Assembly (NCBI GenBank): GCA_035457005.1
Contig: DATICB010000011.1
Span: 4,098-68,097 of the forward strand
Origin: Patescibacteria group bacterium
GTDB lineage: Bacteria > Patescibacteriota > Microgenomatia > Levybacterales > UBA12049
Length of the DNA stretch: 64,000 nt
Direction of reading: 5' to 3'
The first letter of the stretch is position 1; every line of letters starts with the position of its first letter. The translations under genes and the position numbers were made by a program. Positions 3,202 through 36,881 of this stretch are shown here, in pieces. The notes below the pieces were generated by a model. It saw only the letters and a list, made by a program, of their open reading frames with translations. It made no database searches and had not been told where the DNA came from.

Positions 3202-3417
3202 TTATCTGTGGTACAGAAGTAGCAGTGAAATGACCGCAAACAAAACTGCCAACATAATCGTTGCAATGTAAAGAAACCTCTCAACACTTCTCTTACTTCG
3301 GTAAAATTCTCCTGCTCCGCCGAAAGCAGTTGAAAGTCCAGATCCTTGCATTTGCAATGCAATACACACAATAAGAAGTACCGCAACAACAATTTCAATA
3401 ACAAGTAAAAGTATCAT
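3202..3417 (-). CDS. secG: Preprotein translocase subunit SecG
   Basis: 71 aa, two TM helices, glycine-rich loop (QGSGLSTAFGGAGEF) typical of SecG. Confidence 0.7.
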   Translation of the reverse strand: MILLLVIEIVVAVLLIVCIALQMQGSGLSTAFGGAGEFYRSKRSVERFLYIATIMLAVLFAVISLLLLYHR

Positions 3418-4878: not shown

Positions 4879-6123
4879 ATGAAAACAATAAAAGTATCAA
4901 TACAGGATGAGCACACACTCGTGCTTCAAGAGATCGGACAAAAAGGTGACTTAATCGATTTAAAGTCAATTCATGAAGTTGATATTGATAAATCTACAAT
5001 TGAGAATGTAATAAATTCAATTAAAAGGGATGAGTTTAATGCTCAACTAGAGAAAGAGACAAAAACTATTGAGACCAAAATGGAATTGCAAGCAAAATTG
5101 AAAGAGAAGGAAATTATTGACCGCGCAAAAGATGCCCTTTCTAAAAAAGATCAAGAAATTTTAACATTAAATTCCAAAATTGAAGTTATTGCAAAACAAA
5201 CGGAATCAGATACTAAATTGAAAGATCTTGAAGAAAAACAAAAAATTATGGATGATTACCGTCAAAAATTAAGTGAAAAAGATACCGAAATTAGTGAAAT
5301 AAAGCACAAAGGTGAATTAGAGGTTGAAAAGTTAAATGAAAAACTTAGGTCTAGCGAGACAGCATTAGTTTCATTAAAAGAAATGAGATCGAAAATGAGT
5401 ACCAAGATGATTGGCGAATCCTTAGAGACACATTGTGAAAATGAATTTAATAAAATTAGGCCATTTGCTTTCCCTAACGCAAAATTTGGCAAAGACAATA
5501 CAGTCTCAGGAACCGGCTCAAAAGGCGATTATATTTACCGAGAGTCTGATGAAGATGGGAATGAAATTCTATCAATCATGTTTGAGATGAAAAATGAAGA
5601 AGATGGTACTGCAACAAAACACAAGAATAAAGATTTTTTTAAAGAACTTGACAAGGACAGGAAAGAAAAAGATTGCGAATTTGCCGTATTGGTTAGCTTA
5701 CTTGAAAAAGATAATGAATATTATGATGACATAGTTACTGTTCACGAATATTCAAACATGTACTCCATTCGACCCCAACATTTCATTACAACAATCGGTT
5801 TTTTACGCCAAGGAAACATAAAATCACAAGAGCTACGACGTCAGATTCAAATTTTAAAAAATCAAAATATAGATGTTACTAACTTTGAAAATAACATGAA
5901 CGCATTTAAAGATGCTTTCGCACGCAACTATAACCTTGCCTCGGATCAATTTGCTAATGCAATAAAGGAAATTGATAATACAATTGACCATTTAAACAAA
6001 GTGAAAGAAAATCTATTGAAGTCTGATAATAACTTGCGACTCGCCAATAATAAGGCGATTGATTTATCAATAAAAAAATTGACAGCAAATAGTCCGAGCG
6101 TAGCAAAAGCATTTGAAAAATAG
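4879..6123 (+). CDS. DUF2130-like coiled-coil protein with a C-terminal globular domain
   Basis: Long K/E-rich coiled-coil N-terminal half followed by a conserved C-terminal region (HCENEFNKIRPFAFPNAKFGKDNTV...DYIYRE). Confidence 0.5.
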   Translation: MKTIKVSIQDEHTLVLQEIGQKGDLIDLKSIHEVDIDKSTIENVINSIKRDEFNAQLEKETKTIETKMELQAKLKEKEIIDRAKDALSKKDQEILTLNSKIEVIAKQTESDTKLKDLEEKQKIMDDYRQKLSEKDTEISEIKHKGELEVEKLNEKLRSSETALVSLKEMRSKMSTKMIGESLETHCENEFNKIRPFAFPNAKFGKDNTVSGTGSKGDYIYRESDEDGNEILSIMFEMKNEEDGTATKHKNKDFFKELDKDRKEKDCEFAVLVSLLEKDNEYYDDIVTVHEYSNMYSIRPQHFITTIGFLRQGNIKSQELRRQIQILKNQNIDVTNFENNMNAFKDAFARNYNLASDQFANAIKEIDNTIDHLNKVKENLLKSDNNLRLANNKAIDLSIKKLTANSPSVAKAFEK

Positions 6124-6196: not shown

Positions 6197-7138
6197 TTAC
6201 AAAGCGAGGATAACAATTGTTCCGATCACTGCTGCTACTGCACCAATCAACCCGACTCCAATCACCACATCACCAGGACCAGTTGGTGGAAGCGTTGGCT
6301 TTGGTGTTGTTGTAGGCGGTGTCACGGTTGGTGTTGCCGTCGGCGTTGGTGTATCAGTTGGTGTAATTGTTGACGTTGGCGTGGGCGTAGGTGTGTCTGT
6401 TGGCGTCACTGTTTCCGATGGAGTAGGTGTTTCTGTAGGAGTTGAAGTCGGTGTGTCGGTGGGTGTAATCGTTGGTGTAGGAGTTGACGTCGGCGTTGCT
6501 GTTGGTGTGAGACTTGGTGCAGCACAATCTGCTGTTTTTGCCCAACAGAATCCATATCCTAAAACATTTGCAGACGAGCTTTGATCAAATGGCGATGTTC
6601 CAAATGTGCATGTTTGCCCATTCAAGGTATAAGACAAAACAAAGTCAGTTTGGTATCTTCCGCACGCACCAAAATTAACACCACCTTCTACGGGATTTAC
6701 TGTCACTGCAAATGACTGAGGACTACTGGTCACGGTAATTGTCTTGGTATTATCCTGTTCATTCTTCAGACACGCAAAAGAATTGGTAGGATCTCCGCCT
6801 AATTCTGCTGCATTTTTACACCAAAAACCAAACCATTTTACCTGTACGTTGGAGTATGTCCCACCATCTGCAGACACAATATAGGCAGTTGTTGTGTATG
6901 ACGTTAAATCGGGTCTTCCACCGTTATTACATGCAGCAGGAGATTCAATAATCGACGTTACCTTAACATGTCCGCAGCTATCCAATCCTCCTTGGTACAG
7001 TGCAGTACTTGCTTTTTGCTGGGTCTGTTGCTGCTGCTGACCATACCAAACAGTAAGAGGAATTGCGACAAGAAGAATAAGCAAAAGAAGTAATGCCAAA
7101 ACTTTCTGTACTGTTTGTGTTTGAAAAAATGAAAACAT
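6197..7138 (-). CDS. Secreted Cys-containing surface protein with a TP-repeat linker and an LPPTG-type sortase sorting signal
   Basis: N-terminal signal/anchor. (T/P)-rich repeat [20 protein letters not shown]... C-terminal LPPTGPG plus a hydrophobic helix. Confidence 0.65.
6283..6526. repeat. Imperfect tandem codon-level repeats (ACN-CCN) encoding the TP-rich linker; these generate a spurious opposite-strand ORF at 6159-6584
   Basis: Direct reading of the sequence. Confidence 0.7.
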
Positions 7139-7218: not shown

Positions 7219-8325
7219 GTGAAAAAGTATCTTCCGTGGATTGTCTATGCATTTTCTTTTCTTGCATTTTCATACACGCTTTATTCACTTATAAAAGTAG
7301 CAACAACATTTCAGCCAGACTTTAGTATTTTTTACTACGCTGCACGAGATGTATTGCATGGAATTACTCCGTACAACGATAAAACATTATTTACGGCTTT
7401 TAATTACCCGGTTGCAACAACGATTTTTTTCATGCCTTTCACATTTTTTTCATTTAAAATATCACAAAGTATTTTTACTATTACTAATGCAGTAGCACTT
7501 TTTTCAGCCATTCTTTTCACCTATAAATCACTACAAAAGAAAATCGTTGTGTGGCAATTTTTAGTAGTTGCAAGTTTTGCACTTTTAGCGTTTCCAACAA
7601 AATTTACTTTTGGCATGGGGCAGACCAATCTGATTGCTTATGCATTGTTGCTGGCAGGATTTTTCCTTTTTTCAAAGACAAAAAGAATAAAAAGCGCATT
7701 CCTATTTTTTCTTTGCGCCATGTTACTCAAACCAATTTTATTCTTTACACTTCTTGTATTTCTGTTTGAAAAACAATATACATATTTTTTCTCTCTTTGT
7801 ATCGCAATAGCGTTCTTTGTTTTTCTCATTCCAATTCTTTTCCATCTACCAAATAGTAATGTAATTTTTTTGCAAAACATACTACATCAGAGTCTTGCTG
7901 GTAGGGAAGTGTACTATAATCAAGGATTTTTAGGCTTTATTGCACGACTAACAAACAATTTGGCACTACGAACTATTGTTACCACTGGTATAACAGTACC
8001 ACTTCTTTTCTTTGTTTTTTGGAAAATCCGCAGTATTTCATTTGTTAGCAAACTATCGCTACTTCTGACAACGCTCCTCCTTATAGATCCACTTTCTTGG
8101 CAACACCATTTTGTCTTTCTTCTTCTCCCATTTTTACTTACGTATTTTTTAGTGACTAAACAAAAACTTCATCAAAAATTTTATTTACTACTTTTTGTCA
8201 TGTCTTATCTTTTTGTAGCATGGAATTTTAAAACACCACAAATATTTCAATCATTTCCTCTTATACTTTCCAATCAATTGTACGGCACAATTCTCCTCCT
8301 CTTCTTACAGCTCAAACTGTTGTAA
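7219..8325 (+). CDS. DUF2029/GT87-family polytopic membrane glycosyltransferase-like protein
   Basis: About 10 TM helices; PDFSIFYYAARDVLHGITPY motif characteristic of DUF2029 mannosyltransferase-like proteins. Confidence 0.55.
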   Translation: MKKYLPWIVYAFSFLAFSYTLYSLIKVATTFQPDFSIFYYAARDVLHGITPYNDKTLFTAFNYPVATTIFFMPFTFFSFKISQSIFTITNAVALFSAILFTYKSLQKKIVVWQFLVVASFALLAFPTKFTFGMGQTNLIAYALLLAGFFLFSKTKRIKSAFLFFLCAMLLKPILFFTLLVFLFEKQYTYFFSLCIAIAFFVFLIPILFHLPNSNVIFLQNILHQSLAGREVYYNQGFLGFIARLTNNLALRTIVTTGITVPLLFFVFWKIRSISFVSKLSLLLTTLLLIDPLSWQHHFVFLLLPFLLTYFLVTKQKLHQKFYLLLFVMSYLFVAWNFKTPQIFQSFPLILSNQLYGTILLLFLQLKLL

Positions 8326-19547: not shown

Positions 19548-19799
19548 ATGTATTTTGTATACGTTCTACAAAGTATGAAGGATGATAATTTTTATACAGG
19601 TTTTTCAGACAATTTGAAAAGAAGATTGAGCAAGCATAATACAGGTCTTGTCACTGCTACAAAACATAGACTTCCATTAAAACTTATTTACTACGAATTT
19701 TGTCTCAACAAAACAGATGCACTCCATAGGGAGATCTACTTAAAAACATCTTGGGGTAAAAAATACATTAAAAACAGATTATCAAATTATCTCATGTAG
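19548..19799 (+). CDS. GIY-YIG nuclease-family mini-protein
   Basis: YFVYVLQS...FYTGFSDNLKRRLSKHN GIY-YIG core; 83 aa. Confidence 0.75.
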   Translation: MYFVYVLQSMKDDNFYTGFSDNLKRRLSKHNTGLVTATKHRLPLKLIYYEFCLNKTDALHREIYLKTSWGKKYIKNRLSNYLM

Positions 19800-20180: not shown

Positions 20181-20843
20181 ATGGATCGCAAACAGTTTTA
20201 CAAACTCCTCCTTCTTCGCTCGGTTGGTAACTTTTTGGTCTTATTTGCACTGTTTGGTATTTTTGCAACAATTGGTCCCGCACTTTTTTACGAAGTCAGA
20301 TTTCAGATCGATAATCTGACCGGAACACAATATGTCGTTGCACAGACGGATGCCCCTAACCAATTGAAAACTATTCAAAACAATCAGAAAGTGTTAATTC
20401 CGCCTGATACCTACTTCAGTATTGTTATTCCAAAAATCGGCGCGAGTTCCCGGGTAATTATTAATGTTGACCCAACCAATGAAAAAGAATATTTGGCAGC
20501 ACTCCAAAAAGGAGTTGCTCATGCAAAAGGTACTGTTTTCCCAGGAATGAATGGGATTAGCTTTTATTTTTCCCACTCAACAGACAGCTTTTGGGATGTC
20601 GGACGATATAACGCAATCTTTTATTTACTTAAAGACATGCAAATAGGTGATGACATTTATATTTACTTTAAAAATTACCGCTACAATTATAAAGTCACCC
20701 AAACAGAAATCTTGGATCCATCGGACGTGTCACTTTTGGTTAATGCTCAAAAAGTACAAGACCAAGAAGTAGTGCTGCAAACATGCTGGCCTCCTGGCAC
20801 AACATGGAAACGGTTTATCGTGATTGCCAAACCAGTAAAATAA
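20181..20843 (+). CDS. Sortase-family transpeptidase (paralog 1)
   Basis: N-terminal TM anchor; His motif GVAHAKGT; catalytic Cys motif VVLQTCWP. Confidence 0.7.
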   Translation: MDRKQFYKLLLLRSVGNFLVLFALFGIFATIGPALFYEVRFQIDNLTGTQYVVAQTDAPNQLKTIQNNQKVLIPPDTYFSIVIPKIGASSRVIINVDPTNEKEYLAALQKGVAHAKGTVFPGMNGISFYFSHSTDSFWDVGRYNAIFYLLKDMQIGDDIYIYFKNYRYNYKVTQTEILDPSDVSLLVNAQKVQDQEVVLQTCWPPGTTWKRFIVIAKPVK

Positions 20844-24574: not shown

Positions 24575-24623
24575 TTATAGTAATTTTACCTCTGAAATAG
24601 GAAAGACATTTTCGTGGTTAGTG

Positions 24624-24697
24624 GGTGGCCAACGGGAGTCGAACCCGCAACCGCTAGATCCACAATCTAGTGCTCTAACCATTGAGCTATGGCCACC
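24624..24697 (-). tRNA. tRNA-His (anticodon GTG) with encoded G-1
   Basis: G-1 plus acceptor gtggcca/tggccac, anticodon loop uuGUGga, T-arm gcggg-ttcgact-cccgt. Confidence 0.85.
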
Positions 24698-24802: not shown

Positions 24803-25033
24803 ATGGGAGCAACAGGTGGTTTTTCTGACGGGAGAGGAAGTTTTCCAGACCGTGGACATCAAGAAAGCACCCAGGGAATAACGGAATGGCATCCACAAAG
24901 AGATCCGCTTGCACCTAAGCGCAAAGGTTGCAGATTCTGGCCTAGAAGAAAACCAAGAAACCCACAAGAACCTCAAGGACCAAGAGATTATACAGAACTC
25001 TATCGAGAGCATGGTCTAATTCCTCGTGGCTAG
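24803..25033 (+). CDS. Small basic G/R/P-rich protein
   Basis: GC-rich ORF downstream of tRNA-His (internal Met start). Confidence 0.3.
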   Translation: MGATGGFSDGRGSFPDRGHQESTQGITEWHPQRDPLAPKRKGCRFWPRRKPRNPQEPQGPRDYTELYREHGLIPRG

Positions 25034-25680
25034 CTTTTTGGCTTCGCAATTACTACAAACCGTTGTAAATCCGCAAATCCATCACACGTATACAGAATAA
25101 GTGTTTCGCCTTTTTGGGACAACAAAACACTTACCTGGTCAGGCGACACATCAAATGTCTTTTCCACAACATACACATACTGTTTATTTCCCCCAGCAGT
25201 TAGAGTAATCTGTGACCCTGTAGAAAGCCACCTAATGGGGCCAAATCGATCATTCGTATTATGCCCGTATAGTATAATAGGCCCATCCTCCCCAGGGCGC
25301 GCAGACGTATTTAAATGCGATATGCCATTCTCTGCAATGCCCCACACGCCATTACCAATCGCTTCTTCAACAATTGGCAGTTCCATCTGGACACTTGGAA
25401 TACTTACCCATGTCGGCGCAGGGAGTGTTTTGGCAACAACAGGCACTTTTGGTGTAAAAAAAGCAAGCTGAACACCCTCATTAATATAAAAAAACGTGGG
25501 AATAATGACAAGAAGTAGTCCAGAAATAAGAAGAAGTTTGGTCATAAGAGACGTCTTATAGACAAAATTGTGAAATAAAGAGGGAAGTCTTCTCCCTTGG
25601 TATGTGGGTTTTGTGACTTGGGATTTGAGACTTGCGGTCTTGGACTTACTTACTTTCTTTGGCATATTTCTTAGCACCAA
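25030..25680 (-). CDS. Sortase-family transpeptidase (paralog 2)
   Basis: TM anchor; PIILYGHN His motif; LILYTCDG Cys motif. Confidence 0.7.
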   Translation of the reverse strand: MVLRNMPKKVSKSKTASLKSQVTKPTYQGRRLPSLFHNFVYKTSLMTKLLLISGLLLVIIPTFFYINEGVQLAFFTPKVPVVAKTLPAPTWVSIPSVQMELPIVEEAIGNGVWGIAENGISHLNTSARPGEDGPIILYGHNTNDRFGPIRWLSTGSQITLTAGGNKQYVYVVEKTFDVSPDQVSVLLSQKGETLILYTCDGFADLQRFVVIAKPKS

Positions 25681-26551
25681 GTGCTAATACTACTATACCA
25701 GCTACTAACATGAAGTCCATAACTGTATTTTCAAAGGTACCTGTTCCTGCCATTGTTGATGCACCCAAGACTGCTTGGATTGGCTGACTAGAAGAACTAG
25801 ATCCACCACCAACGTGATTACCACTACAATCGTGTGTTGCACAACCAAGTCCATCTCCACCATCATTTGATCCACCACCATTGGATGGAGTATTTGTTGG
25901 TGTTGGAGTGACGCCAGCATATGTACAGACTGAGCTGTCTGCAACTTCTGTTGCATCGACATTAGAATCATAATTTGTTGCTTCTGGATCTGTGCAGACA
26001 TGTGTTTTTGGTAAGCAATTTCCTTCTGATTGGTAGTCGCCATCTGGAACAGTTGACTGTACGCCATCAATATTTGCACAGACATCTTTTTGAGAATAAA
26101 CACATAAGTCATGATTTGCAACTTCAGTCGCTGGATTAAATATTCCGTCTGTTCCACCATAGTTTATTGCACTATCGTCTGCACAAACTTGTGTTTTTGG
26201 GAAACATTCTTTGTCATTGTTTTGATAATCTCCTGCAGGAACTGTTGATTGAATTCCGGAAATATTAAGACATTGGTCTGATACTGGGTTATTAGATACG
26301 CACCAATCAGAGATACATTGTTTATAATCGTCTTCTGCACTACTACCATGACCCTTAACACAATCACCTGAGTATACAAAAGAACCACTACTATTATTGT
26401 CACTTAATGTAAAAGGGTACTTACCACCATTTTCTGGATGGCAATACTTTACGTCATGATCTGCTGAGACATTTTGAACTGAAGGTCGTACAAGAAAAAG
26501 TCCGCCTGCTAAAGCGAGAAGAAGTCCGAAAACAAAAAGTAATTTTTTCAT
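25646..26551 (-). CDS. Secreted Cys-rich repeat protein with a C-terminal membrane anchor/sorting-signal-like tail
   Basis: Signal peptide; two about 45-aa Cys-containing repeats (C.NI.G.QSTVP.GDYQ...C.PKT.VC); QAVLGAST...TM...KKYAKESK tail. Confidence 0.6.
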   Translation of the reverse strand: MKKLLFVFGLLLALAGGLFLVRPSVQNVSADHDVKYCHPENGGKYPFTLSDNNSSGSFVYSGDCVKGHGSSAEDDYKQCISDWCVSNNPVSDQCLNISGIQSTVPAGDYQNNDKECFPKTQVCADDSAINYGGTDGIFNPATEVANHDLCVYSQKDVCANIDGVQSTVPDGDYQSEGNCLPKTHVCTDPEATNYDSNVDATEVADSSVCTYAGVTPTPTNTPSNGGGSNDGGDGLGCATHDCSGNHVGGGSSSSSQPIQAVLGASTMAGTGTFENTVMDFMLVAGIVVLALGAKKYAKESK

Positions 26552-26774
26552 ATAGATATCCTATAAAAATAGTTCTATAGGATTAGATGGCAGTATATAC
26601 GAATAAAAATAGAACGTCAATAGGCATTTTGAGGCTAAATAATGACGAATACAAAACATGCTACCTACGATTCTTTTTTTGCTTGTCTTTTTTTAAAGAA
26701 TCTAGTTTAAGTTTCCCTCTTGCATTTAAAAAAAACGAATGCTACTATCAGCCTGACTGTCTAAATTTATTTCT

Positions 26775-29700
26775 GTGGGAAACGAATTTATCAAAAATTT
26801 ATTAACAGTTATTTCTTCTTTTTCGATTCTCATCCAGTCGTTGTCTCCAATCGTGGCAATTGTCCCAACTATAGCACCTGCTACAGCATATGCCCAAACA
26901 GTCACGCCAACAGATACTGTTACTCCAACCCCAACTGATACGGTTACACCAACAGATACGATAGCACCAACACCAGATACTGCAACGCCTACACCAGACA
27001 ATACAACCCCAACTGATACGGTTACACCAACAGATACGATAGCACCAACACCATCCGATACGCCAACCGATGCAGTAACACCAACAGACAATCCAACTAC
27101 ATCACCAAGCAATACTACTAATAACCCATCTCAAGCACCACCGGCAACAGATACTCCAACAGTAACCCCATCTGTTACCCCAGATAATACAACAACATCA
27201 GTAAATGGAACTCTTTCAACAACAATCTTGGACAATGTAGCAGCACCAAGCCTTGATTTGTCAACAGCCCCAACATCCAGCGCAACATTAACAACCAATA
27301 AAGCAGATTATGCACCAACAGACACAGCAGTTATTTCTGGAAATAGTTTTGCAGCAAATACAACCTATGTACTTACTATTAGTAGTACAGATAATCCAAC
27401 AACCAGTACAACAGTAAATATTACTACAGATGCAAATGGTTCATTTACCTATGCGTATCAATTGGATGGCAACTACAGACCAAATTATTCTGTTGTATTA
27501 AAACTTAGTGGTACAACAGTTGCCACAACAACATTTACAGATAGTCCTGCAGTAACAACAACGCAAAACAACGTTGCATGTATGGCAGATCAACCAGGCC
27601 AGAGTGGACTTAACTGTACAGCAAATGATATTTCAGTTGCATCTGTATCTTCTATTACTATTAATGGTCATGGATGTAGATTTCCAGGAGACACAGTTAG
27701 CTTTACTGCGAATTGGAGCATTCAATCGACAGCAAATAATAGATATAACGTAGGACTTTGGTTTAACACAACAGGTGGAACCAGTGCTTTGCATGGAACC
27801 TGTTCTGCAACTTCAATTCCAAGTAGTCCAGCTCCGTTCTTTGATAGTGGTGCTGGAAGTGTCTGCGGAGGCTTAGACAAAAATCCTGGGGCAGGAACAC
27901 TTTCAATAACTCAAACAGCAACATGCAACCCAGATAGCAGTGGATTCTTAAAGCTCCCTTACTGTGCTTCATGGCAACAAAACAGCGGAGCATGTAGCGT
28001 GCCAACAGATACTGTTCCAGGATCTCCTTCAAAGTGTAAGTGTCAGGATGGGTTCACCATTCCAATTACTGTCCCACCCTCAGTCGAAGTTGTTAAATCA
28101 CTTTCTCCAGCAAACGACAGTGGCTTATTTAATCTTCAAGTCAATGCATCATCAAGTGCAACAAATGTTGGTAATGGCGGTACAACTGGAAAAGTAGGTA
28201 TAACAACAGGCGCTGGTAATACTTTTGGGGAAACAGCAGGAACTGCTACATCTCTAAGTAACTACACATCAACAGCTTCCTGTGTATTAAGAGGAACAGC
28301 AACGCCAGTTGCAATAACAGGAACTGGTCCTACGTGGAACATTACAAATGTTACTAATGGTCAAGATATTGTCTGTACAATTACTAATACAAGAAGCACT
28401 GGGACAATTGAGCTAAAGAAGGTCTGGTCTGGAACTGGTGGTCAAACAACTCTTAATATTGGTACATCAGCAGGGGGCACACAAGTGGCATCTGTTCAAA
28501 CGGGCGCGAATGGAGCAACTCCCCTTACTACTGGAACAAAAACAGTTAACGCTGGCACTTACTTTCTCTCAGAAACAGGCGGACTTTCTAATTATACAGC
28601 TGCTCTTGCCTGTACAGATAATGGTAATCCAGCAACGGTAACAAATAGTTCGGTTTCTGTTACAGCAGGACATACAGTTATTTGTACGTTTACCAACACG
28701 CTTCAACAAGCCCATCTTACCTTGGTAAAAACACTCACAAAGGATAACGGCGGAAATGCAGCAATTACAGACTGGACCTTAACCGCAACAGGCAATACCA
28801 ATATTTCTGGAACATCAGGAAATGCCGCAGTGACTAACGCAGGAGTACTTCCGGGCACTTATGCTCTTGGAGAATCTGGCGGCCCAAGTGGATACACAGC
28901 AGGAACATACAGTTGTGTAAAAAATAACGGAGCACCAGTAAGCAGCAATTCTATTACCCTTGCGAATGGAGACAGTGCAACTTGTACGGTTAACAACAAT
29001 GACAATCCACCATCTCTTACACTTGTCAAACAAGTTAGTAATACACATGGCGGCACAGCTCAAACAACAGACTGGACACTTACTGCAACAGGCCCAACAA
29101 CATTATCCGGTGCAGGTGGAGCAACAAGTGGCGCAACCTTTAAAGCAGGGACATATACCCTTTCTGAATCAACAGGTTCTTCGGGGTATACAGCAGGAGG
29201 TTGGAATTGCACGAATAATGTTTCTGTATCAAACAGTCAGATAACGCTTGGTCTTGGACAAACAACAACCTGTACAATTATTAATTCCGACGTTGCTCCA
29301 ACACTGAAGTTGGTTAAACACGTAACCAATGACAATGGAGGTACGAAGGCGCCACATGATTGGACACTTGTCGCAACAGGAAGTGGTGGTTTTAGTGATA
29401 CAGGTGATTCAACAACATTTCATGCAGTAACAGCAGGAGTCTCTTACTCACTCTCTGAATCTGCTATTTCGGGGTATACAGCAGGAAACTGGTCATGCGA
29501 TGGCGGCAATCAAAGCACAAATACTATTACACTTGGTGTTGGGCAAAATGTTACCTGTTCGGTTACTAATGACGACCAAGCACCATCGTTAACATTAGTC
29601 AAACATGTTAGTGGTGGAACAGCGCTGGCAACTGCATGGACACTTACGGCAACAGGAAGCAGTCAGTCTCCAACAAATCTTTCGGGAACAACACCAGTCG

Positions 29701-32672
29701 CAAGTGGCAATACCTTTAAAGCAGATACCTATACACTTGGAGAAAGTGGCCCATCAGGATATACAGCGTCACTGTATAGCTGTTCCAAAAATAATGAAGC
29801 ACCAGTAAGCGGAAACTCTATTACTTTAGCAAACGGCGATAGCGCAACGTGTACTGTAACCAATACGCGCGATCAGGGATCCATTGAATTGAAAAAAGCG
29901 TGGTCTGGAACAGCAGGACAAACAACACTGCAAATAGGAACGTCTGCTGGTGGCACACAGGTTACTCATGTTCAAACAGGATCAAATGGGACAACACCAC
30001 TCACAACAGGGGCGCAAACAGTTGATACTGGCACGTATTATGTAAGTGAGACAGGTGGACTTACCGATTATGCTGGGGTTTTAACTTGTACAGATAACAA
30101 TAGTTCGGTAACACCAGGACAGGATAGTTCGGTAACTGTTGGCAAAGGCGATGTTGTTATATGTACCTACACAAATACACGAAATACAGGCACAATTCAG
30201 GTTAAAAAACTTGTTGACCCGATCGATAACTCTTCATGGGATTTCTCAGTATCCGGACCAACAAATAACAATGCAGGTCCTCTGGCGAGTGGCTTATCGT
30301 CCAATCAATTTATATCCGATACAGGATCATACACGGTAAGTGAATCTGCGCATACAGGGACAAATGGTAGCAATTACACCAGCACCTATTCCTGTAGCGA
30401 TGGGACAACAACTGTTGCTAGTGGATCTGGAACAACAACGTCCTCGTTTAGTCTGACAACAGGAGAAAATGTCTTATGTACATTTACCAACAGTATTAAA
30501 AAAGGCACGATTATTGTTAAAAAAACCATGGTTGGCGGAACAGGATCGTTTGATTTCACTGGAGATGTTGCCGGAACAATAAGTACAGATGGTGGAATAC
30601 TAACAACAAGTAATGTTCTTCCTGGAACATACACATCGGTTGAAGGAGCAGCAACCGGCTGGGATTTAACAAATATAAGCTGTGATGATCCTCGAAGCGC
30701 GACAACAAGCACAGAGGATGTTTCTGCTGCAACTGCAACGTTTAAAGTAGACCCAGGCGAAACAGTTACTTGTACTTTCACAAATACGAAAAAAGGTCAT
30801 CTGATTGTTCAAAAAACAACCAATCCATCCCAAGACCCAACTTCCTTTAGTATCCTAGCAACCGGATCAGGAACAATAACAAATGGAGGTAATGGAACAA
30901 TAACTGACGCAACAGACCAAAATTATGAAGTAACACCTGGCACATACACAGTAACTGAAACAGTCCCAGCAGGTTGGCAGCAAGATGCAAATGCATGTAC
31001 CAATGTAGCTGTTGGAGCAGGAGAAACAGTCTACTGCGGCATAACCAATACCAAATTAGGCAATGTAACCGTTATCAAATTCTTAGATGACAATGCAGAT
31101 GGATTTAAAGCAACAGCAGAAGCAACATTGAATGACTGGGAAATTCACTTAGGTCAAATGTCCCAATTTACTGGTCATGGAGGAAATCCAGTAGATGGTC
31201 AGGTAACTTTTAGCGACATCTATCCGGGACAATATGATTTGAGCGAACAACTCCAGAGTGGTTATGATCAATCTAATATTTACTGTGCTAATGAAACAGG
31301 TATTGATAATAATAATTCTCATGCAGTTACTCTTGGCGCAGGGCAGAATATCACTTGTTACATTGGTAACTATCAGAAAGCGCACATTACGGTTGTCAAA
31401 CAGGTTGTCGATCCAAATGGTGACCCAATCACTGACCCATCAACCAACTTTAATTTCAGCGTTACAGGACAAAACCCATTTACCCTTACTGATGACGAAC
31501 AGAAATCCTTTGATGTAAAACCAGGAAGTTATGATGTTACCGAAACACAAAATAATAACTATGATCTTGGCGGATGTAGTGCAGTCTATGACAATCGATC
31601 TGTTGGCGCACCAATTAGTCAACAAAACACACAAGGAGAAAATGTCACGTTAGGTAGCAGTGATACCGTTACAGTAACCTGCGTAAACAAACAAAAGCAA
31701 GGACATGTTACTGGATATAAATGGAGTGATGGAAATGGCAATGCAAATTTTGACTGTGACCAAGAAACAGAATCTTGCGAACCAAAGCTTTCTGGTTGGA
31801 CAATATTTGCAGACACCAACGATAACCAAACGCTTGATCAAGGAGAGGTCTCTACAACAACAGATAATAACGGTAATTACACACTTGATCTCAATCCTGG
31901 GACATATCAAATTTGTGAAGTTGTCCAATCTGGATGGAAGCAGACATATCCCGTCAACCAAACACAATCAATCTGTTGGCCAGTTACCATAATATCTAAT
32001 GGAACGTTAGAGGGTAATAGAAACTTTGGTAACCAATTACAAATACCAGTACTTTCTATTACCAAAACAAATGACAAATTGGGAGCAGACCAGCACATCG
32101 GTGATAGTGTCCTCTACACCATCACACTTTCTGCAACACAGGCTGCAGCAGCAAATGTTGTCCTGACTGATTTACTGCCAAAAGGATTTGATTACAGAAA
32201 TGGCTCAGCAACAATAGATACAGGATCCGGAGCTGTACCATTTAGCAACTTTAGCGATGATTACCACTCACCAGGTATCTGGAATATCGGCAATATTGCA
32301 AAAGATCAGACAGTAACCCTCACACTTATTGCAGACATCAACGGCACTGTTAGTCCAGGAGATTACAAAGATGTTGCTTGGGCAAAGGGTACACCGGTAA
32401 GCGACAGTTCTCATACAGTCTATGCAACAGCGCTAAATCCAGGATTCATAGATACCAATTTTGCTGGAACAGATGTCAATGTTGTTGCAGATACACAGTC
32501 ATCAACAACACTTTCACCACAACAGGCAGTGTTAGGCGCATCTACATCCATCTTGCCCGAAACAGGTGCCAATATTCTTTGGGCAGAAACAGGAGTTTTA
32601 CTAGTGCTTATTGGCCTTGGTTTCACGGGGTATGGTATACTCTCTCGAAAGAAATATGGAAAAAATAAGTAA
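26775..32672 (+). CDS. Giant LPETG-anchored surface adhesin-like protein (1965 aa): TP-rich linker, about 10 tandem ~100-aa beta-rich repeats, SdrD-B/Cna-B-like and DUF11-like domains
   Basis: Signal peptide; repeated TLTATG...SGYTAG.WSC...TC..TN units; SGWTIFADTNDNQTLDQGE...NGNYTLDLNPGTYQICE (Cna-B-like); C-terminal LPETGAN plus TM plus RKKYGKNK. Confidence 0.85.
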   Translation: MGNEFIKNLLTVISSFSILIQSLSPIVAIVPTIAPATAYAQTVTPTDTVTPTPTDTVTPTDTIAPTPDTATPTPDNTTPTDTVTPTDTIAPTPSDTPTDAVTPTDNPTTSPSNTTNNPSQAPPATDTPTVTPSVTPDNTTTSVNGTLSTTILDNVAAPSLDLSTAPTSSATLTTNKADYAPTDTAVISGNSFAANTTYVLTISSTDNPTTSTTVNITTDANGSFTYAYQLDGNYRPNYSVVLKLSGTTVATTTFTDSPAVTTTQNNVACMADQPGQSGLNCTANDISVASVSSITINGHGCRFPGDTVSFTANWSIQSTANNRYNVGLWFNTTGGTSALHGTCSATSIPSSPAPFFDSGAGSVCGGLDKNPGAGTLSITQTATCNPDSSGFLKLPYCASWQQNSGACSVPTDTVPGSPSKCKCQDGFTIPITVPPSVEVVKSLSPANDSGLFNLQVNASSSATNVGNGGTTGKVGITTGAGNTFGETAGTATSLSNYTSTASCVLRGTATPVAITGTGPTWNITNVTNGQDIVCTITNTRSTGTIELKKVWSGTGGQTTLNIGTSAGGTQVASVQTGANGATPLTTGTKTVNAGTYFLSETGGLSNYTAALACTDNGNPATVTNSSVSVTAGHTVICTFTNTLQQAHLTLVKTLTKDNGGNAAITDWTLTATGNTNISGTSGNAAVTNAGVLPGTYALGESGGPSGYTAGTYSCVKNNGAPVSSNSITLANGDSATCTVNNNDNPPSLTLVKQVSNTHGGTAQTTDWTLTATGPTTLSGAGGATSGATFKAGTYTLSESTGSSGYTAGGWNCTNNVSVSNSQITLGLGQTTTCTIINSDVAPTLKLVKHVTNDNGGTKAPHDWTLVATGSGGFSDTGDSTTFHAVTAGVSYSLSESAISGYTAGNWSCDGGNQSTNTITLGVGQNVTCSVTNDDQAPSLTLVKHVSGGTALATAWTLTATGSSQSPTNLSGTTPVASGNTFKADTYTLGESGPSGYTASLYSCSKNNEAPVSGNSITLANGDSATCTVTNTRDQGSIELKKAWSGTAGQTTLQIGTSAGGTQVTHVQTGSNGTTPLTTGAQTVDTGTYYVSETGGLTDYAGVLTCTDNNSSVTPGQDSSVTVGKGDVVICTYTNTRNTGTIQVKKLVDPIDNSSWDFSVSGPTNNNAGPLASGLSSNQFISDTGSYTVSESAHTGTNGSNYTSTYSCSDGTTTVASGSGTTTSSFSLTTGENVLCTFTNSIKKGTIIVKKTMVGGTGSFDFTGDVAGTISTDGGILTTSNVLPGTYTSVEGAATGWDLTNISCDDPRSATTSTEDVSAATATFKVDPGETVTCTFTNTKKGHLIVQKTTNPSQDPTSFSILATGSGTITNGGNGTITDATDQNYEVTPGTYTVTETVPAGWQQDANACTNVAVGAGETVYCGITNTKLGNVTVIKFLDDNADGFKATAEATLNDWEIHLGQMSQFTGHGGNPVDGQVTFSDIYPGQYDLSEQLQSGYDQSNIYCANETGIDNNNSHAVTLGAGQNITCYIGNYQKAHITVVKQVVDPNGDPITDPSTNFNFSVTGQNPFTLTDDEQKSFDVKPGSYDVTETQNNNYDLGGCSAVYDNRSVGAPISQQNTQGENVTLGSSDTVTVTCVNKQKQGHVTGYKWSDGNGNANFDCDQETESCEPKLSGWTIFADTNDNQTLDQGEVSTTTDNNGNYTLDLNPGTYQICEVVQSGWKQTYPVNQTQSICWPVTIISNGTLEGNRNFGNQLQIPVLSITKTNDKLGADQHIGDSVLYTITLSATQAAAANVVLTDLLPKGFDYRNGSATIDTGSGAVPFSNFSDDYHSPGIWNIGNIAKDQTVTLTLIADINGTVSPGDYKDVAWAKGTPVSDSSHTVYATALNPGFIDTNFAGTDVNVVADTQSSTTLSPQQAVLGASTSILPETGANILWAETGVLLVLIGLGFTGYGILSRKKYGKNK
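26892..27150. repeat. Imperfect tandem ACN/CCN codon repeats encoding the TP-rich linker; these generate a spurious antisense ORF at 26726-27112
   Basis: Read directly from the sequence. Confidence 0.7.
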
Positions 32673-33642
32673 ATTATTACTAACAGTAGTATCACTGATG
32701 CTTCTTTTTGCAGGGGTATCTTTTGCTGCATCAAGCTTGTCAGTACGGCTCGAGCAACCAAAATCACCAACGAATTTGAATGATTTTACTATTACTTTTG
32801 TTGCCCTGGACACACAAAATAATCCAGTAACAGTAACGTGTTACAAAAAAGGTCCCTCAGATGGAGGGTATGCACAATTTGACACAATAAAAAATCTTTC
32901 TAATGGCGGAGGATCAGACAATTGCCACGCGACATCATCCCTTGTTAATCAGGACGGAACATATGCATTTTACGTAACAGCAAGTAATGGATCAACAACC
33001 GTTACGAGTAGCATAGTCACTATTGATGTGAATACATCAGGTCCTGGTACACCAACGAATTACAGCAAAACCCAATCAGACAGTTGCCATTTTACCATTT
33101 CTTTCCGAACAGCAGATGACAGTGGCAAAACAAGCAAAGTCGAAATCTACCGATCTTCAACAACAACACTGACTGCAGATAATAATTCACGCATCACATC
33201 CATATCTGTTGGCTCCAACACCGACAGGACGTACTCTGACACTATTCCATCTTGCGGCACAACATATTTCTATGCACTCAGAGCTTTTGACAGCGCAGGG
33301 AATGCATCAGGACTTGTTGGAGATGGCGAGCTGACAGCAACCAGCACAACAACAACGAATACAACTTCCGGAACAACAGGTAATGCAGCAGGCGTTACTG
33401 GCACAGGTGGCGGTGCAATCCCTGTCACAACAAGTGACGTAACTCCAGGTGAAGGGAAGACAGCCAGTGGTACACCAGCACCAACAGAGCAACAAGTATT
33501 AGGAGCAACCAAGGCCCCTATACAATCCCCCTTATCATCGGTTGGGGACTTCTTCCATTCATATATCAACTGGCTACTCCTTATTGGTCTTGCTGTTGTT
33601 GTTGGCATTGCAATTTGGTATTTCCGACAGAAAAATAGCTAA
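32656..33642 (+). CDS. Secreted fibronectin-III/Ig-like surface protein with a C-terminal anchor; start at MEKISKLLL (overlaps the previous stop by 17 nt)
   Basis: Signal peptide; TYFYALRAFDSAGNAS FnIII-like motif; EQQVLGATK...TM...YFRQKNS tail. Confidence 0.6.
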   Translation: MEKISKLLLTVVSLMLLFAGVSFAASSLSVRLEQPKSPTNLNDFTITFVALDTQNNPVTVTCYKKGPSDGGYAQFDTIKNLSNGGGSDNCHATSSLVNQDGTYAFYVTASNGSTTVTSSIVTIDVNTSGPGTPTNYSKTQSDSCHFTISFRTADDSGKTSKVEIYRSSTTTLTADNNSRITSISVGSNTDRTYSDTIPSCGTTYFYALRAFDSAGNASGLVGDGELTATSTTTTNTTSGTTGNAAGVTGTGGGAIPVTTSDVTPGEGKTASGTPAPTEQQVLGATKAPIQSPLSSVGDFFHSYINWLLLIGLAVVVGIAIWYFRQKNS

Positions 33643-33650
33643 AGTACTTC

Positions 33651-34271
33651 ATGAGGCATTTCTCAACATATTTTCTTGTTATTGGGGCGTTGTGTATTTT
33701 TGCGGGCTTTTTGATTCTTGCATTTACGTACTATCAATTAATAGGAGACGAACTTTCATATTTTCTCTTTCATCCCAATTCACAAGCAAATGTTGTTTCC
33801 AAATTTAATCATCCGAGGCAACAAGACATTGTCCCTGCTGACGAACAATTCGGCATTGTTATTCCAAAAATTCGGGCGAATAACAAGGTGATTGCCAATG
33901 TTGACCCATTTGATGAAATGACTTACCAATGGGCACTCACTAAGGGCGTTGCTCACGCAAAAGGATCATCCCTTCCTTACGAAAAGGGAACTGTTTTTCT
34001 TTTTTCTCATTCTTCAGTAAATTTCTATGAAGCTGTCAAATATAACTCTATTTTTTATCTTTTGGATAAATTGAAAAAAGGAGACACAGTTTACCTTTTC
34101 TATAAAGGTACTAAATACACATATTTAGTGAGCGGGAAAACAATAGTCGCACCAACAAATGTGTCGTATTTATTTGAGAAAACAGGAAACAGGCTTATTC
34201 TTATGACATGCTGGCCTCCTGGAACTACTTTCAGGAGGCTGCTTGTTGAAGCAGTGTTGAAAAATAAGTAA
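33651..34271 (+). CDS. Sortase-family transpeptidase (paralog 3)
   Basis: GVAHAKGS His motif; RLILMTCWPPGTT Cys motif; about 60% identical to paralog 1. Confidence 0.7.
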   Translation: MRHFSTYFLVIGALCIFAGFLILAFTYYQLIGDELSYFLFHPNSQANVVSKFNHPRQQDIVPADEQFGIVIPKIRANNKVIANVDPFDEMTYQWALTKGVAHAKGSSLPYEKGTVFLFSHSSVNFYEAVKYNSIFYLLDKLKKGDTVYLFYKGTKYTYLVSGKTIVAPTNVSYLFEKTGNRLILMTCWPPGTTFRRLLVEAVLKNK

Positions 34272-34272
34272 T

Positions 34273-34291
34273 TTTTGCGCGCCCGGAGGGA
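34273..34291 (-). repeat. Degenerate partial copy (16 of 18 nt) of the 3' end of tRNA-Arg(TCT)
   Basis: gcgcgcccggagggattcc here versus gcgctcccggagggactcg at 34660-34678. Confidence 0.5.
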
Positions 34292-34307
34292 TTCCCTTCG
34301 GTTCATT

Positions 34308-34628
34308 TCATTCACTCAGGGTAAACTTCTCATCTCTCATGAGAGCTTCAACAAACTCAGTGCAAGTATTAATTCCAAGTATACCATCTATTAACATTTG
34401 TTTCTTTGCGTGACTCCAGCCTTTTAATTGTTGTTCTCTCTTTGCTGCTTGGTACTTATTAACGTACTTTTCTGCATACTTAAATCTAAGATCAGAAAAT
34501 TTTTTTGTGAACAAAGATTTTTTATTTTTGTGTTTTTTAAACCGTGGAATAATATCATCTGTTATCCCAACATAAAACATTTTCTGATCGCAAAGAAGAA
34601 TGTAAGTAAACCAAGCAGAACGACTCAT
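34308..34628 (-). CDS. GIY-YIG nuclease-family mini-protein
   Basis: WFTYILLCDQKMFYVGITDDIIPRFKKH GIY-YIG core. Confidence 0.7.
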   Translation of the reverse strand: MSRSAWFTYILLCDQKMFYVGITDDIIPRFKKHKNKKSLFTKKFSDLRFKYAEKYVNKYQAAKREQQLKGWSHAKKQMLIDGILGINTCTEFVEALMRDEKFTLSE

Positions 34629-34659
34629 TGTAATTGCTTGCACTGAGCTTGCCGAAGTG

Positions 34660-34733
34660 CGCTCCCGGAGGGACTCGAACCCCCGACCACATCGTTAGAA
34701 CCGATATGCTCTATCCAGCTGAGCTACGGGAGC
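34660..34733 (-). tRNA. tRNA-Arg (anticodon TCT)
   Basis: Acceptor gctcccg/cgggagc, anticodon loop guUCUaa, T-arm ggggg-ttcgagt-ccctc. Confidence 0.8.
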
Positions 34734-34737
34734 AATG

Positions 34738-34809
34738 AGCGGGTTATGGGATTCGAACCCACGACACTCTGCTTGGAAAGCAGATGCTCTACCACTGAGC
34801 TAAACCCGC
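34738..34809 (-). tRNA. tRNA-Gly (anticodon TCC)
   Basis: Acceptor gcgggtt/aacccgc, anticodon loop uuUCCaa, discriminator U. Confidence 0.85.
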
Positions 34810-34894
34810 ACTTCGTCGTTTCACTCCTCAGTGTAAACACGTTTGACGCTAAGTATAAGTGCTTGCTACTTCCTTGTCAAAACAAGCGAATGTG

Positions 34895-34968
34895 TCGGGG
34901 ACAGAAGACTCGAACTTCCGACCTCACGGTCCCAAACCGCGCGCTCTAGCCAACTGAGCTAGTCCCCG
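34895..34968 (-). tRNA. tRNA-Pro (anticodon TGG)
   Basis: Acceptor cggggac/gtccccg, anticodon loop uuUGGga, discriminator A. Confidence 0.85.
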
Positions 34969-35243
34969 TTCTGCAAGGCAGAACTTATCTCTTTACCATA
35001 TTCTGCCAAAATTTTTCTTAATTTATATCCAACTCCTGATTTCAGGAATTTTTCTCTTTTGTCTGTACAAGTTTTACAATACAGTTGTTCAAAATACACA
35101 ATCTTCCAAGGTCTATACGCCTTTGTAAATTTTGATAGGCCACTATTGTGCTCCTTTAGTCTAACCTGAACACTTTTTATTGTTTGTCCAACGTACGTCT
35201 TATTTTTCTTTGTTAAACTTTGCAGGATGTATACTTTGTACAC
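34959..35243 (-). CDS. GIY-YIG nuclease-family mini-protein (its stop overlaps the 5' end of tRNA-Pro by 10 nt)
   Basis: YKVYILQSLTKKNKTYVGQTIKSVQVRLKEHN GIY-YIG core. Confidence 0.7.
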   Translation of the reverse strand: MYKVYILQSLTKKNKTYVGQTIKSVQVRLKEHNSGLSKFTKAYRPWKIVYFEQLYCKTCTDKREKFLKSGVGYKLRKILAEYGKEISSALQNGD

Positions 35244-35298
35244 ATCTATAGTTTAGCAAATCTTCCTCCTGAGAAAATTCTCCTCTGGAGAAGTGCCG

Positions 35299-35317
35299 AA
35301 GGAGGGAATCGGTCACA
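35299..35317 (-). repeat. Partial direct copy of the tRNA-Leu 3' end (T-loop/acceptor, gtgccgaaggagggaatcg)
   Basis: Identical 18-19 nt at 35439-35457 inside the intact tRNA-Leu. Confidence 0.55.
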
Positions 35318-35435
35318 ACTCGCCTTTGGCGGTCGCGACCCCGCCTCCTTCATCTTGCCTTCGGCAGATTCAGTCCGGCTTTCGATTCCACTGCTCTCAG
35401 CACGAATATTTCTGTCCAACAGACAAAAATATTCC

Positions 35436-35521
35436 TGGTGCCGAAGGAGGGAATCGAACCCACACGACATTGCTGTCAAGGGCTCTTAAGGCCCCCGTGT
35501 ATACCATTTCACCACTTCGGC
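35436..35521 (-). tRNA. tRNA-Leu (anticodon TAA), class II with long variable arm, CCA encoded
   Basis: Acceptor gccgaag/cttcggc, anticodon loop cuUAAga, long variable arm, 3' ...ggcacca. Confidence 0.8.
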
Positions 35522-35879: not shown

Positions 35880-36881
35880 TTACCCATGTCTTGGTGGCGT
35901 AACGCCTAACTTTTTCAAAGAATAATCCAACAACTCCTTCATATCATCCCTCCTGCTTTCACTGTCTAGCACAACGCCTATTATGTGATGTCCACCATAG
36001 TCCAGATATGTTACCAAACACAGTCCTGCTTCCGGAGTGTAGCCTGTTTTTACCCCTTTTACACCGGGGTAGCTGCTAATTAAATTGGTTTCATTTTCCA
36101 TATAAAACGCTTTGTGCGTATTGGTTGCCGGAATCGTGTTGTCAAATGTCGCTGCAACCTGTCGAAAAAGAGGGAAGTGCAAAAGAGCGTAGCGAGTCAT
36201 AATCAGTAAATCTCTACTTGTTGTGTATTGGTCTCCATCGCCCTGAAGTCCTGTTGGGTTGGTAAAGTGCGTGTCAGATAGTCCCAGGGTTGCTGTTTTT
36301 TCATTCATTGCAGCAATGAATTTATCCCGCCCACCGGGAAAATTAGCTGCCAATGTCTCTGCTGCATCATTGCCGGAGTTAAGAATAAGCCCGTAGAGCA
36401 AATCAGAAAGCGTCAGCACCTCACCTGTTGTCAGACCCATACTATCCTCACCAACAAGTGCTTTTTGAGAAACCGTATAGGCATCGGGATTTTGTGGGTG
36501 CTCCAGACTTACAATCGCTGTCATAATTTTCGTCAGGGAGGCCATAGGGAGCCTCTGGGTGGCATCTTTAGCAAAAAGTGTTGTATTATCGGTTATGTCA
36601 TAGACAAGGGCAGATTTTGCCGATAGAGTAGGCATCTGCTGCATGTTAGTATCCGCAAGTGTCAAAGGAATGCTCCATAAATCAAGCGTTGCCACCTGAT
36701 TGTTGGTAGGAAGCGCCAAATTGGACGGCACAGGAAAGGAGAGTGCATGAATTTCCTGAGAAACAGGCTCCCACAACCAAACAGTCAGACATGCAAGCGC
36801 AGTAACTAAAAGTATGGTTATAAGGTAAATCAGCCAACCACGCATCGATTTAGCGTAACAAATATCCCAAGTTTTGCGCAA
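35880..36881 (-). CDS. D-alanyl-D-alanine carboxypeptidase (serine-type, peptidase S11/PBP5-like)
   Basis: SLTKIMTA (SxxK), SGN and KTG motifs; N-terminal TM. Confidence 0.75.
   Translation of the reverse strand: MRKTWDICYAKSMRGWLIYLITILLVTALACLTVWLWEPVSQEIHALSFPVPSNLALPTNNQVATLDLWSIPLTLADTNMQQMPTLSAKSALVYDITDNTTLFAKDATQRLPMASLTKIMTAIVSLEHPQNPDAYTVSQKALVGEDSMGLTTGEVLTLSDLLYGLILNSGNDAAETLAANFPGGRDKFIAAMNEKTATLGLSDTHFTNPTGLQGDGDQYTTSRDLLIMTRYALLHFPLFRQVAATFDNTIPATNTHKAFYMENETNLISSYPGVKGVKTGYTPEAGLCLVTYLDYGGHHIIGVVLDSESRRDDMKELLDYSLKKLGVTPPRHG

Follow-up and report, generated by a model that had tools for sequence, protein, structure and literature searches.

A VLG box beside the pentapeptide of sortase-attached proteins looks like a lineage-typical extension of the cell-wall sorting signal in Patescibacteria

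In a 64-kb stretch of DNA from a Patescibacteria group bacterium (contig DATICB010000011.1; the whole stretch is called the window here), genes for three predicted surface proteins lie next to genes for sortases, and each of the three proteins carries a short conserved motif, the VLG box, ahead of its C-terminal membrane anchor. This eight-residue element, G-Q/E-V-L-G-A-S-T, is found just upstream of the cleavage motif in sortase-attached proteins of the candidate phyla radiation (CPR) and, judged by sequence comparison, looks like a lineage-typical and previously undescribed extension of the classical cell-wall sorting signal; full-text literature searches on sortases, CPR/Patescibacteria, VLGA, LAXTG and LPXTG returned no published description of it. 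The box is conserved, stands in register with the pentapeptide, is associated with the pentapeptide and with sortase cassettes, is independent of the passenger protein and sits in disordered linkers. The best explanation would be a sorting signal that has four parts in this lineage and not three: the box, G-[Q/E/A]-V-L-G-(A-S-T), a pentapeptide 0 or 3-4 residues further on, a transmembrane (TM) helix and a basic tail. We assign a probability of roughly 55% to the reading in which the dedicated sortases of Patescibacteria recognise the box, or dock on it, as an extension of the signal on the P-side of the pentapeptide.

The proteins are named A (25646-26551, minus strand), B (26775-32672, plus strand) and C (32656-33642, plus strand), and the enzymes sortase 1 (25030-25680, minus strand), sortase 2 (33651-34271, plus strand) and sortase 3 (20181-20843, plus strand). 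A six-frame scan of open reading frames (ORFs) of at least 80 aa found VLGA three times in the window, once each in A, B and C, always 41-48 residues before the stop codon and ahead of a hydrophobic helix and a basic tail. By composition about 0.5 occurrences are expected in the window (~18,600 coding residues), and the chance of finding VLGA in three specified tails is ~1e-10; a scan of small ORFs revealed no further box-bearing tails in the window. Thus a conserved block ahead of all three anchors, as claimed by an earlier reading made from the sequence alone, is borne out, and so are the gene positions and the presence of three sortases, which were recovered as ORFs with PF04203 scores of 70-75 bits (cut-off 26.6 bits). 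The box reads QAVLGAST in A (25754-25777, minus strand) and in B (32523-32546, plus strand), identical over all eight residues, and QQVLGATK in C (33490-33513, plus strand). The codons for V-L-G-A are GTC TTG GGT GCA, GTG TTA GGC GCA and GTA TTA GGA GCA; the synonymous positions vary, and DNA alignment found zero similarity among the three tails. Such synonymous turnover points to purifying selection at the level of the protein and hence to a functional box.

In A the box directly abuts MAGTG (25739-25753, minus strand), a non-canonical, LAxTG-like pentapeptide that is the predicted sortase cleavage motif; an acidic spacer (TFENTVMD), the TM helix and the basic tail KKYAKESK follow at 25649-25738 (minus strand), as seen in the sequence and in an AlphaFold2 (AF2) model. 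In B, two residues (SI) separate the box from LPETG (32553-32567, plus strand), after which come the TM helix and the basic tail SRKKYGKNK (32568-32669, plus strand). C has a TM helix and a basic tail, RQKNS (33544-33639, plus strand; AF2 and sequence). As VLG-box signal we define an [VI]-L-G that precedes [LMFY][PAG]x[TA]G by 0-5 residues, with a TM helix and a basic tail behind it and a sortase gene next to the coding gene; A and B have all of these features and C all except the pentapeptide. The sequence-only reading had also offered the box as an alternative recognition site, an idea that relied on the lack of a motif in A and C. It is left unsupported, since MAGTG is present in A, and MAGTG, FAGTG, MASTG, LGATG, LAxTG or LGxTG in its relatives; in the C family, 0 of 64 orthologues have LPxTG or another pentapeptide.

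The box lies in linkers that AF2 predicts to be disordered in A and C, and in B it lies ~40 aa beyond the last Pfam domain. The AF2 model of A shows a helix at residues 2-20, a confident domain at ~90-180, disorder from 201 to 271 and the TM helix at 273-300, so that the ~70 last exported residues, which contain the cysteine motif GDGLGCATHDCSGN, the box and MAGTG, are predicted to be disordered. We also considered that the box could be the final strand of a common folded domain. This was ruled out by the disordered linkers of A and C, by the position past the DUF11 domain in B and by the G/S/P-rich low-complexity sequence that precedes the box in many A-type substrates.

For sortase 2, 169 relatives were confirmed in GTDB species genomes, and the gene order giant, C, sortase is conserved in the 80 loci retrieved, so that the synteny extends across Microgenomates. 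Among the giant orthologues, 38 LPxTG-type tails give the consensus G-E-V-L-G-A-S-T-E-L-P-A-T-G-A-N-x-x-W for positions -9 to +9, with V, L and G at -7, -6 and -5 present in 29-32 of the 38. The clade of sortase 1 was represented by 4 instances, to which a metagenome scan added 293 confirmed ones, and for most of these 293 the gene immediately upstream encodes a box-bearing substrate. Wherever the sequence reaches far enough, the gene that precedes a clade-1 sortase, often overlapping it, ends in G(Q/E)VLGAST[L/M][A/G]xTG, VLG-LAxTGN, VLG-LSAxxGE or QVLGSTG, in each case ahead of a TM helix and a basic tail. The pentapeptide differs with the clade of the enzyme: LPxTG goes with the CWPPG sortase clade and [L/M][A/G]xTG with the TC[D/S]GF clade. 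Sortase subclades are congruent with the subtype of the signal, and the box is constant throughout; it is common to the substrates of two sortase clades that are only ~29% identical.

Counted over both clades, V[LI]G occurs within 12 residues upstream of the pentapeptide in 77 of 96 sorted-type tails, against 1.4% expected (binomial p ~1e-123), and the exceptions include several ILG, LLG and VLA variants. The gap between box and pentapeptide in 85 distinct tails is 0 in 10, 2-4 residues in 67 and 5-7 in six, while in two tails the motifs overlap; the distribution is bimodal, with one peak at 0 and the other at 3-5 residues (71 tails). The passengers fall into at least 14 groups unrelated by BLAST. 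Among TM-anchored genes outside the C family, the box is present in 40 of 42 with a pentapeptide, compared with 10 of 73 without one (Fisher p = 5e-19), and several of these ten are substrates with a variant pentapeptide. The register (gap 0 or 3-4), the two sortase clades, the at least 14 passenger groups and this association argue for the earlier proposal that the box extends the sorting signal. In the alignments, V, L and G never change, even though the sequence on either side cannot otherwise be aligned.

A profile of the tail matched 1103 of 1.84 billion cluster representatives (50% identity) at E <= 1e-3, 72 of them at E <= 1e-10. Of 136 sequences newly returned by the profile search, 83 have MA-type pentapeptides and 29 have two or three boxes in tandem. 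The scale is taken from this exhaustive profile search because a word-indexed search with the tail yielded short proteins and fragments only, apparently through a bias in candidate selection. A tblastn search of the PLSDB plasmids with the consensus tail gave no match, which is uninformative since the 40-aa query is too short for that database. The named relatives of sortase 2 nearly all belong to Microgenomates and other Patescibacteria (Gottesman-, Levy-, Davies-, Roizman-, Collier- and Shapirobacteria), and the named relatives overall are CPR except for a few partial records of metagenome-assembled genomes (MAGs) labelled Eisenbacteria or Alphaproteobacteria. Of ten profile-match proteins that were looked up, one bore an organism name, Patescibacteria. 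Clostridia may have tails of the form VLGARR...TGD, which do not count as evidence here. Several MAG records of the 'binchicken'/TPA_asm type (L002, L003, L005, L009, L018 and others) are titled 'uncultured Gammaproteobacteria', 'Pseudomonadales' or 'Bdellovibrionales' and carry the Microgenomates-type cassette of giant, C and sortase; the gene content of these contigs is plainly OP11-like, and their taxonomic labels look wrong.

The box is also found without a cleavage motif and almost without a passenger. [VI]LG is present in the last 90 aa of 58 of the 64 C orthologues, often twice. Proteins of ~700 aa with an ILG(T/D)xT box, a TM helix and a basic tail, again without a pentapeptide, sit just upstream of a clade-1 substrate/sortase pair (L011, 13617-15728; L150, 3026-5176; L133, 2950-5163); this protein is the counterpart of C in the first type of cassette. 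At the other extreme are mini-proteins of 47-80 aa (P0136, P0151, P0153, P0155, P0161, P0164, P0173) whose whole sequence is made up of one or two GQVLGAST boxes, a pentapeptide, a TM helix and a basic tail; a signal peptide is absent from most of them. P0151 (73 aa, VLPETG) ends 3 nt before a sortase gene (locus L161, 5001-5222, sortase 5225-5809) and P0164 (59 aa, LLPNTG) stops 57 nt short of the called sortase gene (locus L164, 3199-3378, sortase 3415-4044); no upstream extension of either ORF is possible. Genes for GT2 glycosyltransferases adjoin both of the mini-substrate/sortase pairs examined.

How would the box act as a docking element? After export via Sec, the tail would retain the protein in the membrane. 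The box, in its disordered juxtamembrane segment, would then dock, as a short strand in extended form, on its membrane-anchored sortase partner at the P-side past the Leu pocket, and docking would lift both affinity and specificity for a weak or degenerate pentapeptide. The sortase would cut after Thr and move the protein to the wall precursor, with the box kept at the new C terminus. C has a box but no scissile motif and would bind the sortase without being cut, perhaps serving B, with which it would be made 1:1, as a membrane-anchored partner or scaffold. We infer both that the sortase physically recognises it and that C is an uncleaved, box-docked partner.

Several points weigh against this. 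Boxes in tandem at variable distance, such as GQVLGASTGQVLGASTMAETG, and the two copies in many C tails are not clearly required for a pure recognition aid, the distance between box and TM helix in C varies from 8 to 35 aa, and the mini-substrates have no cargo; all this hints at a function of the box of its own. The congruence of sortase and signal subtype can stem from co-inheritance alone. In Staphylococcus aureus SrtA and other well-studied sortases, residues upstream of the Leu add little to recognition. Finally, the loci were gathered via sortase homology, so substrates distant from a sortase gene are under-sampled, and a search by profile will by its nature return tails that have the box.

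Some of these observations would be expected if the box were a self-standing juxtamembrane or wall-proximal stalk element with a role apart from sortase recognition, such as an O-glycosylation site (A-S-T), a strand zipping box-bearing proteins together (B with C) or a handle for peptidoglycan or the S-layer; it would then co-occur with the pentapeptide only because the proteins tethered to the envelope are for the most part sortase substrates. Boxes without a pentapeptide in C (58/64) and in another cassette protein fit such a role, as do the tandem copies in 29 of the 136 sequences, the box as sole conserved 'cargo' of mini-substrates such as P0161, P0136 and P0164, the variable box-TM distance in C and the GT2 genes beside two mini-substrate/sortase pairs; from sortase chemistry it also follows that the box remains on the mature protein after cleavage. 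A stalk element does not need a fixed register with the pentapeptide (gap 0 or 3-4), however, and 63 of 73 other C-terminally TM-anchored proteins of the same loci lack the box. Moreover, the box-only proteins have so far all been found within sortase cassettes, and the box can abut the cleavage motif at gap 0 (VLG-LAxTG) or even overlap it, as in two tails (VLGSTG). We regard this explanation as possible but unlikely.

Passive inheritance, in which one ancestral tail module of box, pentapeptide and TM helix was passed around between genes and the box merely survives as a linker or strand without a specific role, would account for tails that align across families whose passengers do not, for the many homology matches of A that cover the tail only (12-30% of the query) and for the passengers of the top profile matches, which fall largely into one BLAST component. 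It is hard to reconcile with V-L-G being invariant over clusters of less than 50% identity while linker, pentapeptide X and TM sequence vary freely, with the purifying selection indicated by synonymous codon turnover at the box, or with the persistence of the box in C tails that lost or never had a pentapeptide; we consider it improbable. The sequence-only reading had itself named a recently duplicated C-terminal segment as what would refute it, and the occurrence of the motif in three neighbouring genes, two of which share an identical 8-residue string, might suggest such a paralogy artefact or else a chance match. Recent duplication is refuted by the DNA alignment and the codon comparison, the tails being without DNA similarity and the third codon positions different; chance would require an event of ~1e-10 for three specified tails, and the same box recurs in hundreds of independent loci. 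The probability left to artefact or chance is negligible. Recognition or docking by dedicated sortases, held at the probability given above, is the reading that we carry forward.

The genes were described earlier as a single island bracketed by sortases. Their overlaps and spacings (A with sortase 1; B with C, 17 nt; C to sortase 2, 9 nt) and the divergent spacer of 223 bp tell instead of two divergent dedicated cassettes, back to back, one with A and sortase 1 and the other with B, C and sortase 2. The A-B spacer (26552-26774) is AT-rich and probably carries the promoters of both cassettes; a promoter-like site on the minus strand (26620-26592) is a weak match to the consensus only.

In the first cassette, A is a secreted, Cys-rich protein of 301 aa in which a signal peptide, small beta domains, a disordered linker, the box, MAGTG, a TM helix and a basic tail follow each other. 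Pfam and NCBIfam scans of A gave no match, and the C-terminal module is the main part shared with its homologues. The cysteine motif (25817-25858, minus strand) is kept upstream of MAGTG-type tails; in the form GDGLGCA(T/V)HDCSGN it stands just 5' of many MAGTG- and LAxTG-type tails whose passengers are otherwise mosaic (L147, L158, P0183, P0184, P0232). The stop codon of A falls within the 5' end of the gene for sortase 1 (overlap 20-35 nt), and sortase 1 is the dedicated partner of A. This enzyme has an N-terminal membrane anchor and the active-site region ...LYTCDGFADLQRF..., with the catalytic residues GH138N, TC198 and R206, and scores 75 bits with PF04203 and 46.7 bits with TIGR01076 (cut-off 39.35). 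Its clade has the signature [F/Y]TC[D/S]GFxDxxR.

In the second cassette, the 1965-aa protein B is a fibrillar adhesin. A signal peptide and a PT-rich region precede at least eight SpaA-type prealbumin-fold domains (SpaA_2, 353 bits across 8 stretches; also SpaA_4, SpaA and SpaA_3) and a DUF11 domain (aa 1760-1878), and a linker of ~40 residues leads to the box, LPETG, TM helix and basic tail. C (328 aa) starts within the 3' end of B (overlap 32656-32672). Its signal peptide is followed by two FN3-like beta-sandwich domains and a disordered stalk (residues 235-295) that holds the motif GAIPV and the box; a TM helix and a basic tail complete the protein. The GAIPV motif (33412-33426, plus strand) is nearly invariant in the family and lies 10-25 residues upstream of the box. 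The AF2 model of C, from a 73-sequence alignment, has a predicted local distance difference test score of 82.6, and Foldseek matched it to tandem FN3 pairs (E ~1e-6); all 205 homologues are annotated as 'hypothetical' and none has Pfam domains. Of the three proteins taken for sortase substrates in the sequence-only reading, A and B stand as predicted substrates. C is probably not cleaved, as the 0 of 64 orthologues with a pentapeptide suggest, and is best read as a membrane-anchored partner and not as a third substrate. Sortase 2, of the '...MTCWPPGTTFRR...' clade, starts 9 nt past C and has the catalytic residues SH120S, TC187 and R196 (PF04203 69.7 bits; TIGR01076 49.1 bits, cut-off 39.35). 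A terminator-like hairpin (34283-34301) lies 3' of it.

B and C, which would be translationally coupled in the window, are physically fused elsewhere: in ~30 of the 80 loci (L007, L012, L030, L042, L055, L058, L059, L063, L069, L070, L074, L078 and others) they form a single ORF, and the profile matches include additional fused cases (P0207, P0220, P0226, P0269, P0296, P0301). The first half of the fused layout runs ...GEVLGAST-x-LPATG-AN, TM helix, K/R residues and the signal peptide of C with its AxA site; the second half has (I/V)RLEQPKSPTN, then the pair of FN3 domains and GAIPV, and last the box with its TM helix and basic tail. The ORF thus encloses a complete sorting signal, and the fusion ties C functionally to B and the sortase. 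From its layout, the fused ORF looks like a polyprotein for cutting by sortase and signal peptidase. It is tempting to speculate, although we think it unlikely, that the box is an autonomous sortase-docking handle of a three-part machine. The uncleavable box of C would hold the sortase and C would perhaps receive B; in fused loci the sortase, at the internal LPxT|G, and signal peptidase, at AxA, would excise the TM hairpin, and B would be released to the wall or ligated onto the new N terminus of C. The mini-substrates would be regulators or wall-linked handles. If true, this would be a native case of sortase-mediated polyprotein processing or protein-protein ligation.

Sortase 3 is an orphan paralogue of sortase 2 (46% identity; PF04203 70.3 bits; TIGR01076 45.7 bits, cut-off 39.35) with the catalytic residues SH132S, TC202 and R211, and a scan of the window found no box-bearing neighbour for it. 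An ORF for a GIY-YIG nuclease (19548-19799) lies just 5' of its gene. Two more small GIY-YIG ORFs (34308-34643 and 34959-35243) are interspersed in a cluster of tRNA-Arg, Gly, Pro and Leu genes (34308-35521), which flanks the island on one side, with tRNA-His (24623-24696) on the other. A D-alanyl-D-alanine carboxypeptidase gene (35880-36881, minus strand; Peptidase_S11, 166 bits) adjoins the island and fits with anchoring to a peptidoglycan wall. A fourth substrate had been proposed at 6197-7138 (minus strand). This PT-rich protein has LPPTG and a TM helix but ends ...TIVILAL; it has no VLG box, and because the basic tail is missing it is a doubtful sortase substrate. A gene for a GT87-family membrane glycosyltransferase (7219-8325) adjoins it.

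Sortase substrates are normally predicted and engineered through the five-residue motif alone. A box shared by more than 1000 protein clusters of an uncultivated radiation would sharpen the prediction of CPR surface proteomes, which include adhesins likely to mediate attachment to host cells, and would recover substrates whose degenerate pentapeptides (MAGTG, LGATG) escape standard models. To enzymologists the box suggests sortases that read more of their substrate, and such enzymes would be of interest as orthogonal ligation tools of higher specificity. The most novel leads come from the B-C fusions and the mini-proteins reduced to a signal, through which the link between adhesin, FN3 membrane protein and sortase can be put to a direct test.

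By domain and catalytic residues all three enzymes are sortases: they exceed the cut-offs of PF04203 and TIGR01076 and have the catalytic His, a TLxTC-like Cys and the downstream Arg, and transpeptidation of the neighbouring proteins is predicted. With the NCBIfam models for classes A-F (NF0337xx), their best scores are 25-61 bits against cut-offs of 140-166 (class D 44 bits, cut-off 165; class E 29 bits, cut-off 160). Since none is reached, the enzymes belong in no named sortase class. Features in common with the canonical LPXTG signal and housekeeping sortase A are LPETG, a TM helix and a K/R tail in B and an N-terminal membrane anchor in the sortases. The difference is the eight-residue box at fixed spacing ahead of the pentapeptide; to our knowledge, the model substrates S. 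aureus protein A, M protein and InlA have no such box. The tail of B also stays below the cut-off of TIGR01167 (10.1 bits against 15.9), yet LPETG, hydrophobic segment and basic tail are all present by sequence, and the tail of C reaches 16.3 bits on its TM helix and basic tail only.

The class C pilus islands also combine SpaA/CnaB-type prealbumin-fold proteins with sortase genes, and the best PDB matches of sortase 2 are class C enzymes, e.g. 2xwg (E = 6e-9), with an alignment that spans the catalytic positions. In contrast to these islands, B appears as a monomeric fibre of 1965 aa and not as a pilin, and C is without a sorting pentapeptide. The pilin motif YPK/YPKN was not found in B, nor a DP[W/F/Y] lid ahead of the catalytic domain in the sortases, the sole DPF being at residue 85 of sortase 2, inside the PF04203 match that starts at residue 69. 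With neither pilin motif nor lid, a pilus island was rejected. Tiny signal-only proteins and doubled or variant motifs are known from the NCBIfam models NF058583 (LAXTG_small_WW), NF033073 (LPXTG_double) and NF058571 (GVDTG_CTERM), but the scores here are far under the cut-offs (15.7 vs 65; 11.9 vs 48; 10.4 vs 29); the tail of B matches NF058583 weakly (E = 0.009, 15.7 bits against 65) and P0173 scores 11.9 bits. No curated NCBIfam model reaches its cut-off on the tails or mini-substrates, and none captures the box. The YSIRK/GS motif in staphylococcal and streptococcal signal peptides is accessory to the pentapeptide and influences how and where a subset of sortase substrates is anchored. The box resembles it as a conserved accessory motif outside the pentapeptide; however, YSIRK/GS is N-terminal and removed, whereas the box lies at the C-terminal end beside the pentapeptide and would be kept after maturation.

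The closest parallel may be sought in systems with a dedicated sortase and a variant motif, such as SrtB, which uses NP(Q/K)TN in IsdC, class D with LPNTA, class E with LAXTG and the Clostridioides difficile enzyme with (S/P)PXTG. As in SrtB/IsdC and classes D and E, the sortase gene adjoins, and often overlaps, a single substrate gene, the pentapeptides are non-LPXTG (MAGTG, LGATG, LAATG) and the subtype of the signal co-varies with the sortase subclade. Sortase 1 is also nearest by sequence to class D-like structures (4d70 and 2kw8, the closest solved ones), and its alignment to 4d70 spans the catalytic positions. The known variants, however, alter residues in or just after the pentapeptide, whereas here an extra upstream element recurs across pentapeptide types and two sortase clades. 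Dedicated pairing of sortase and substrate is already known; what sets the present systems apart is an upstream element common to different pentapeptide types.

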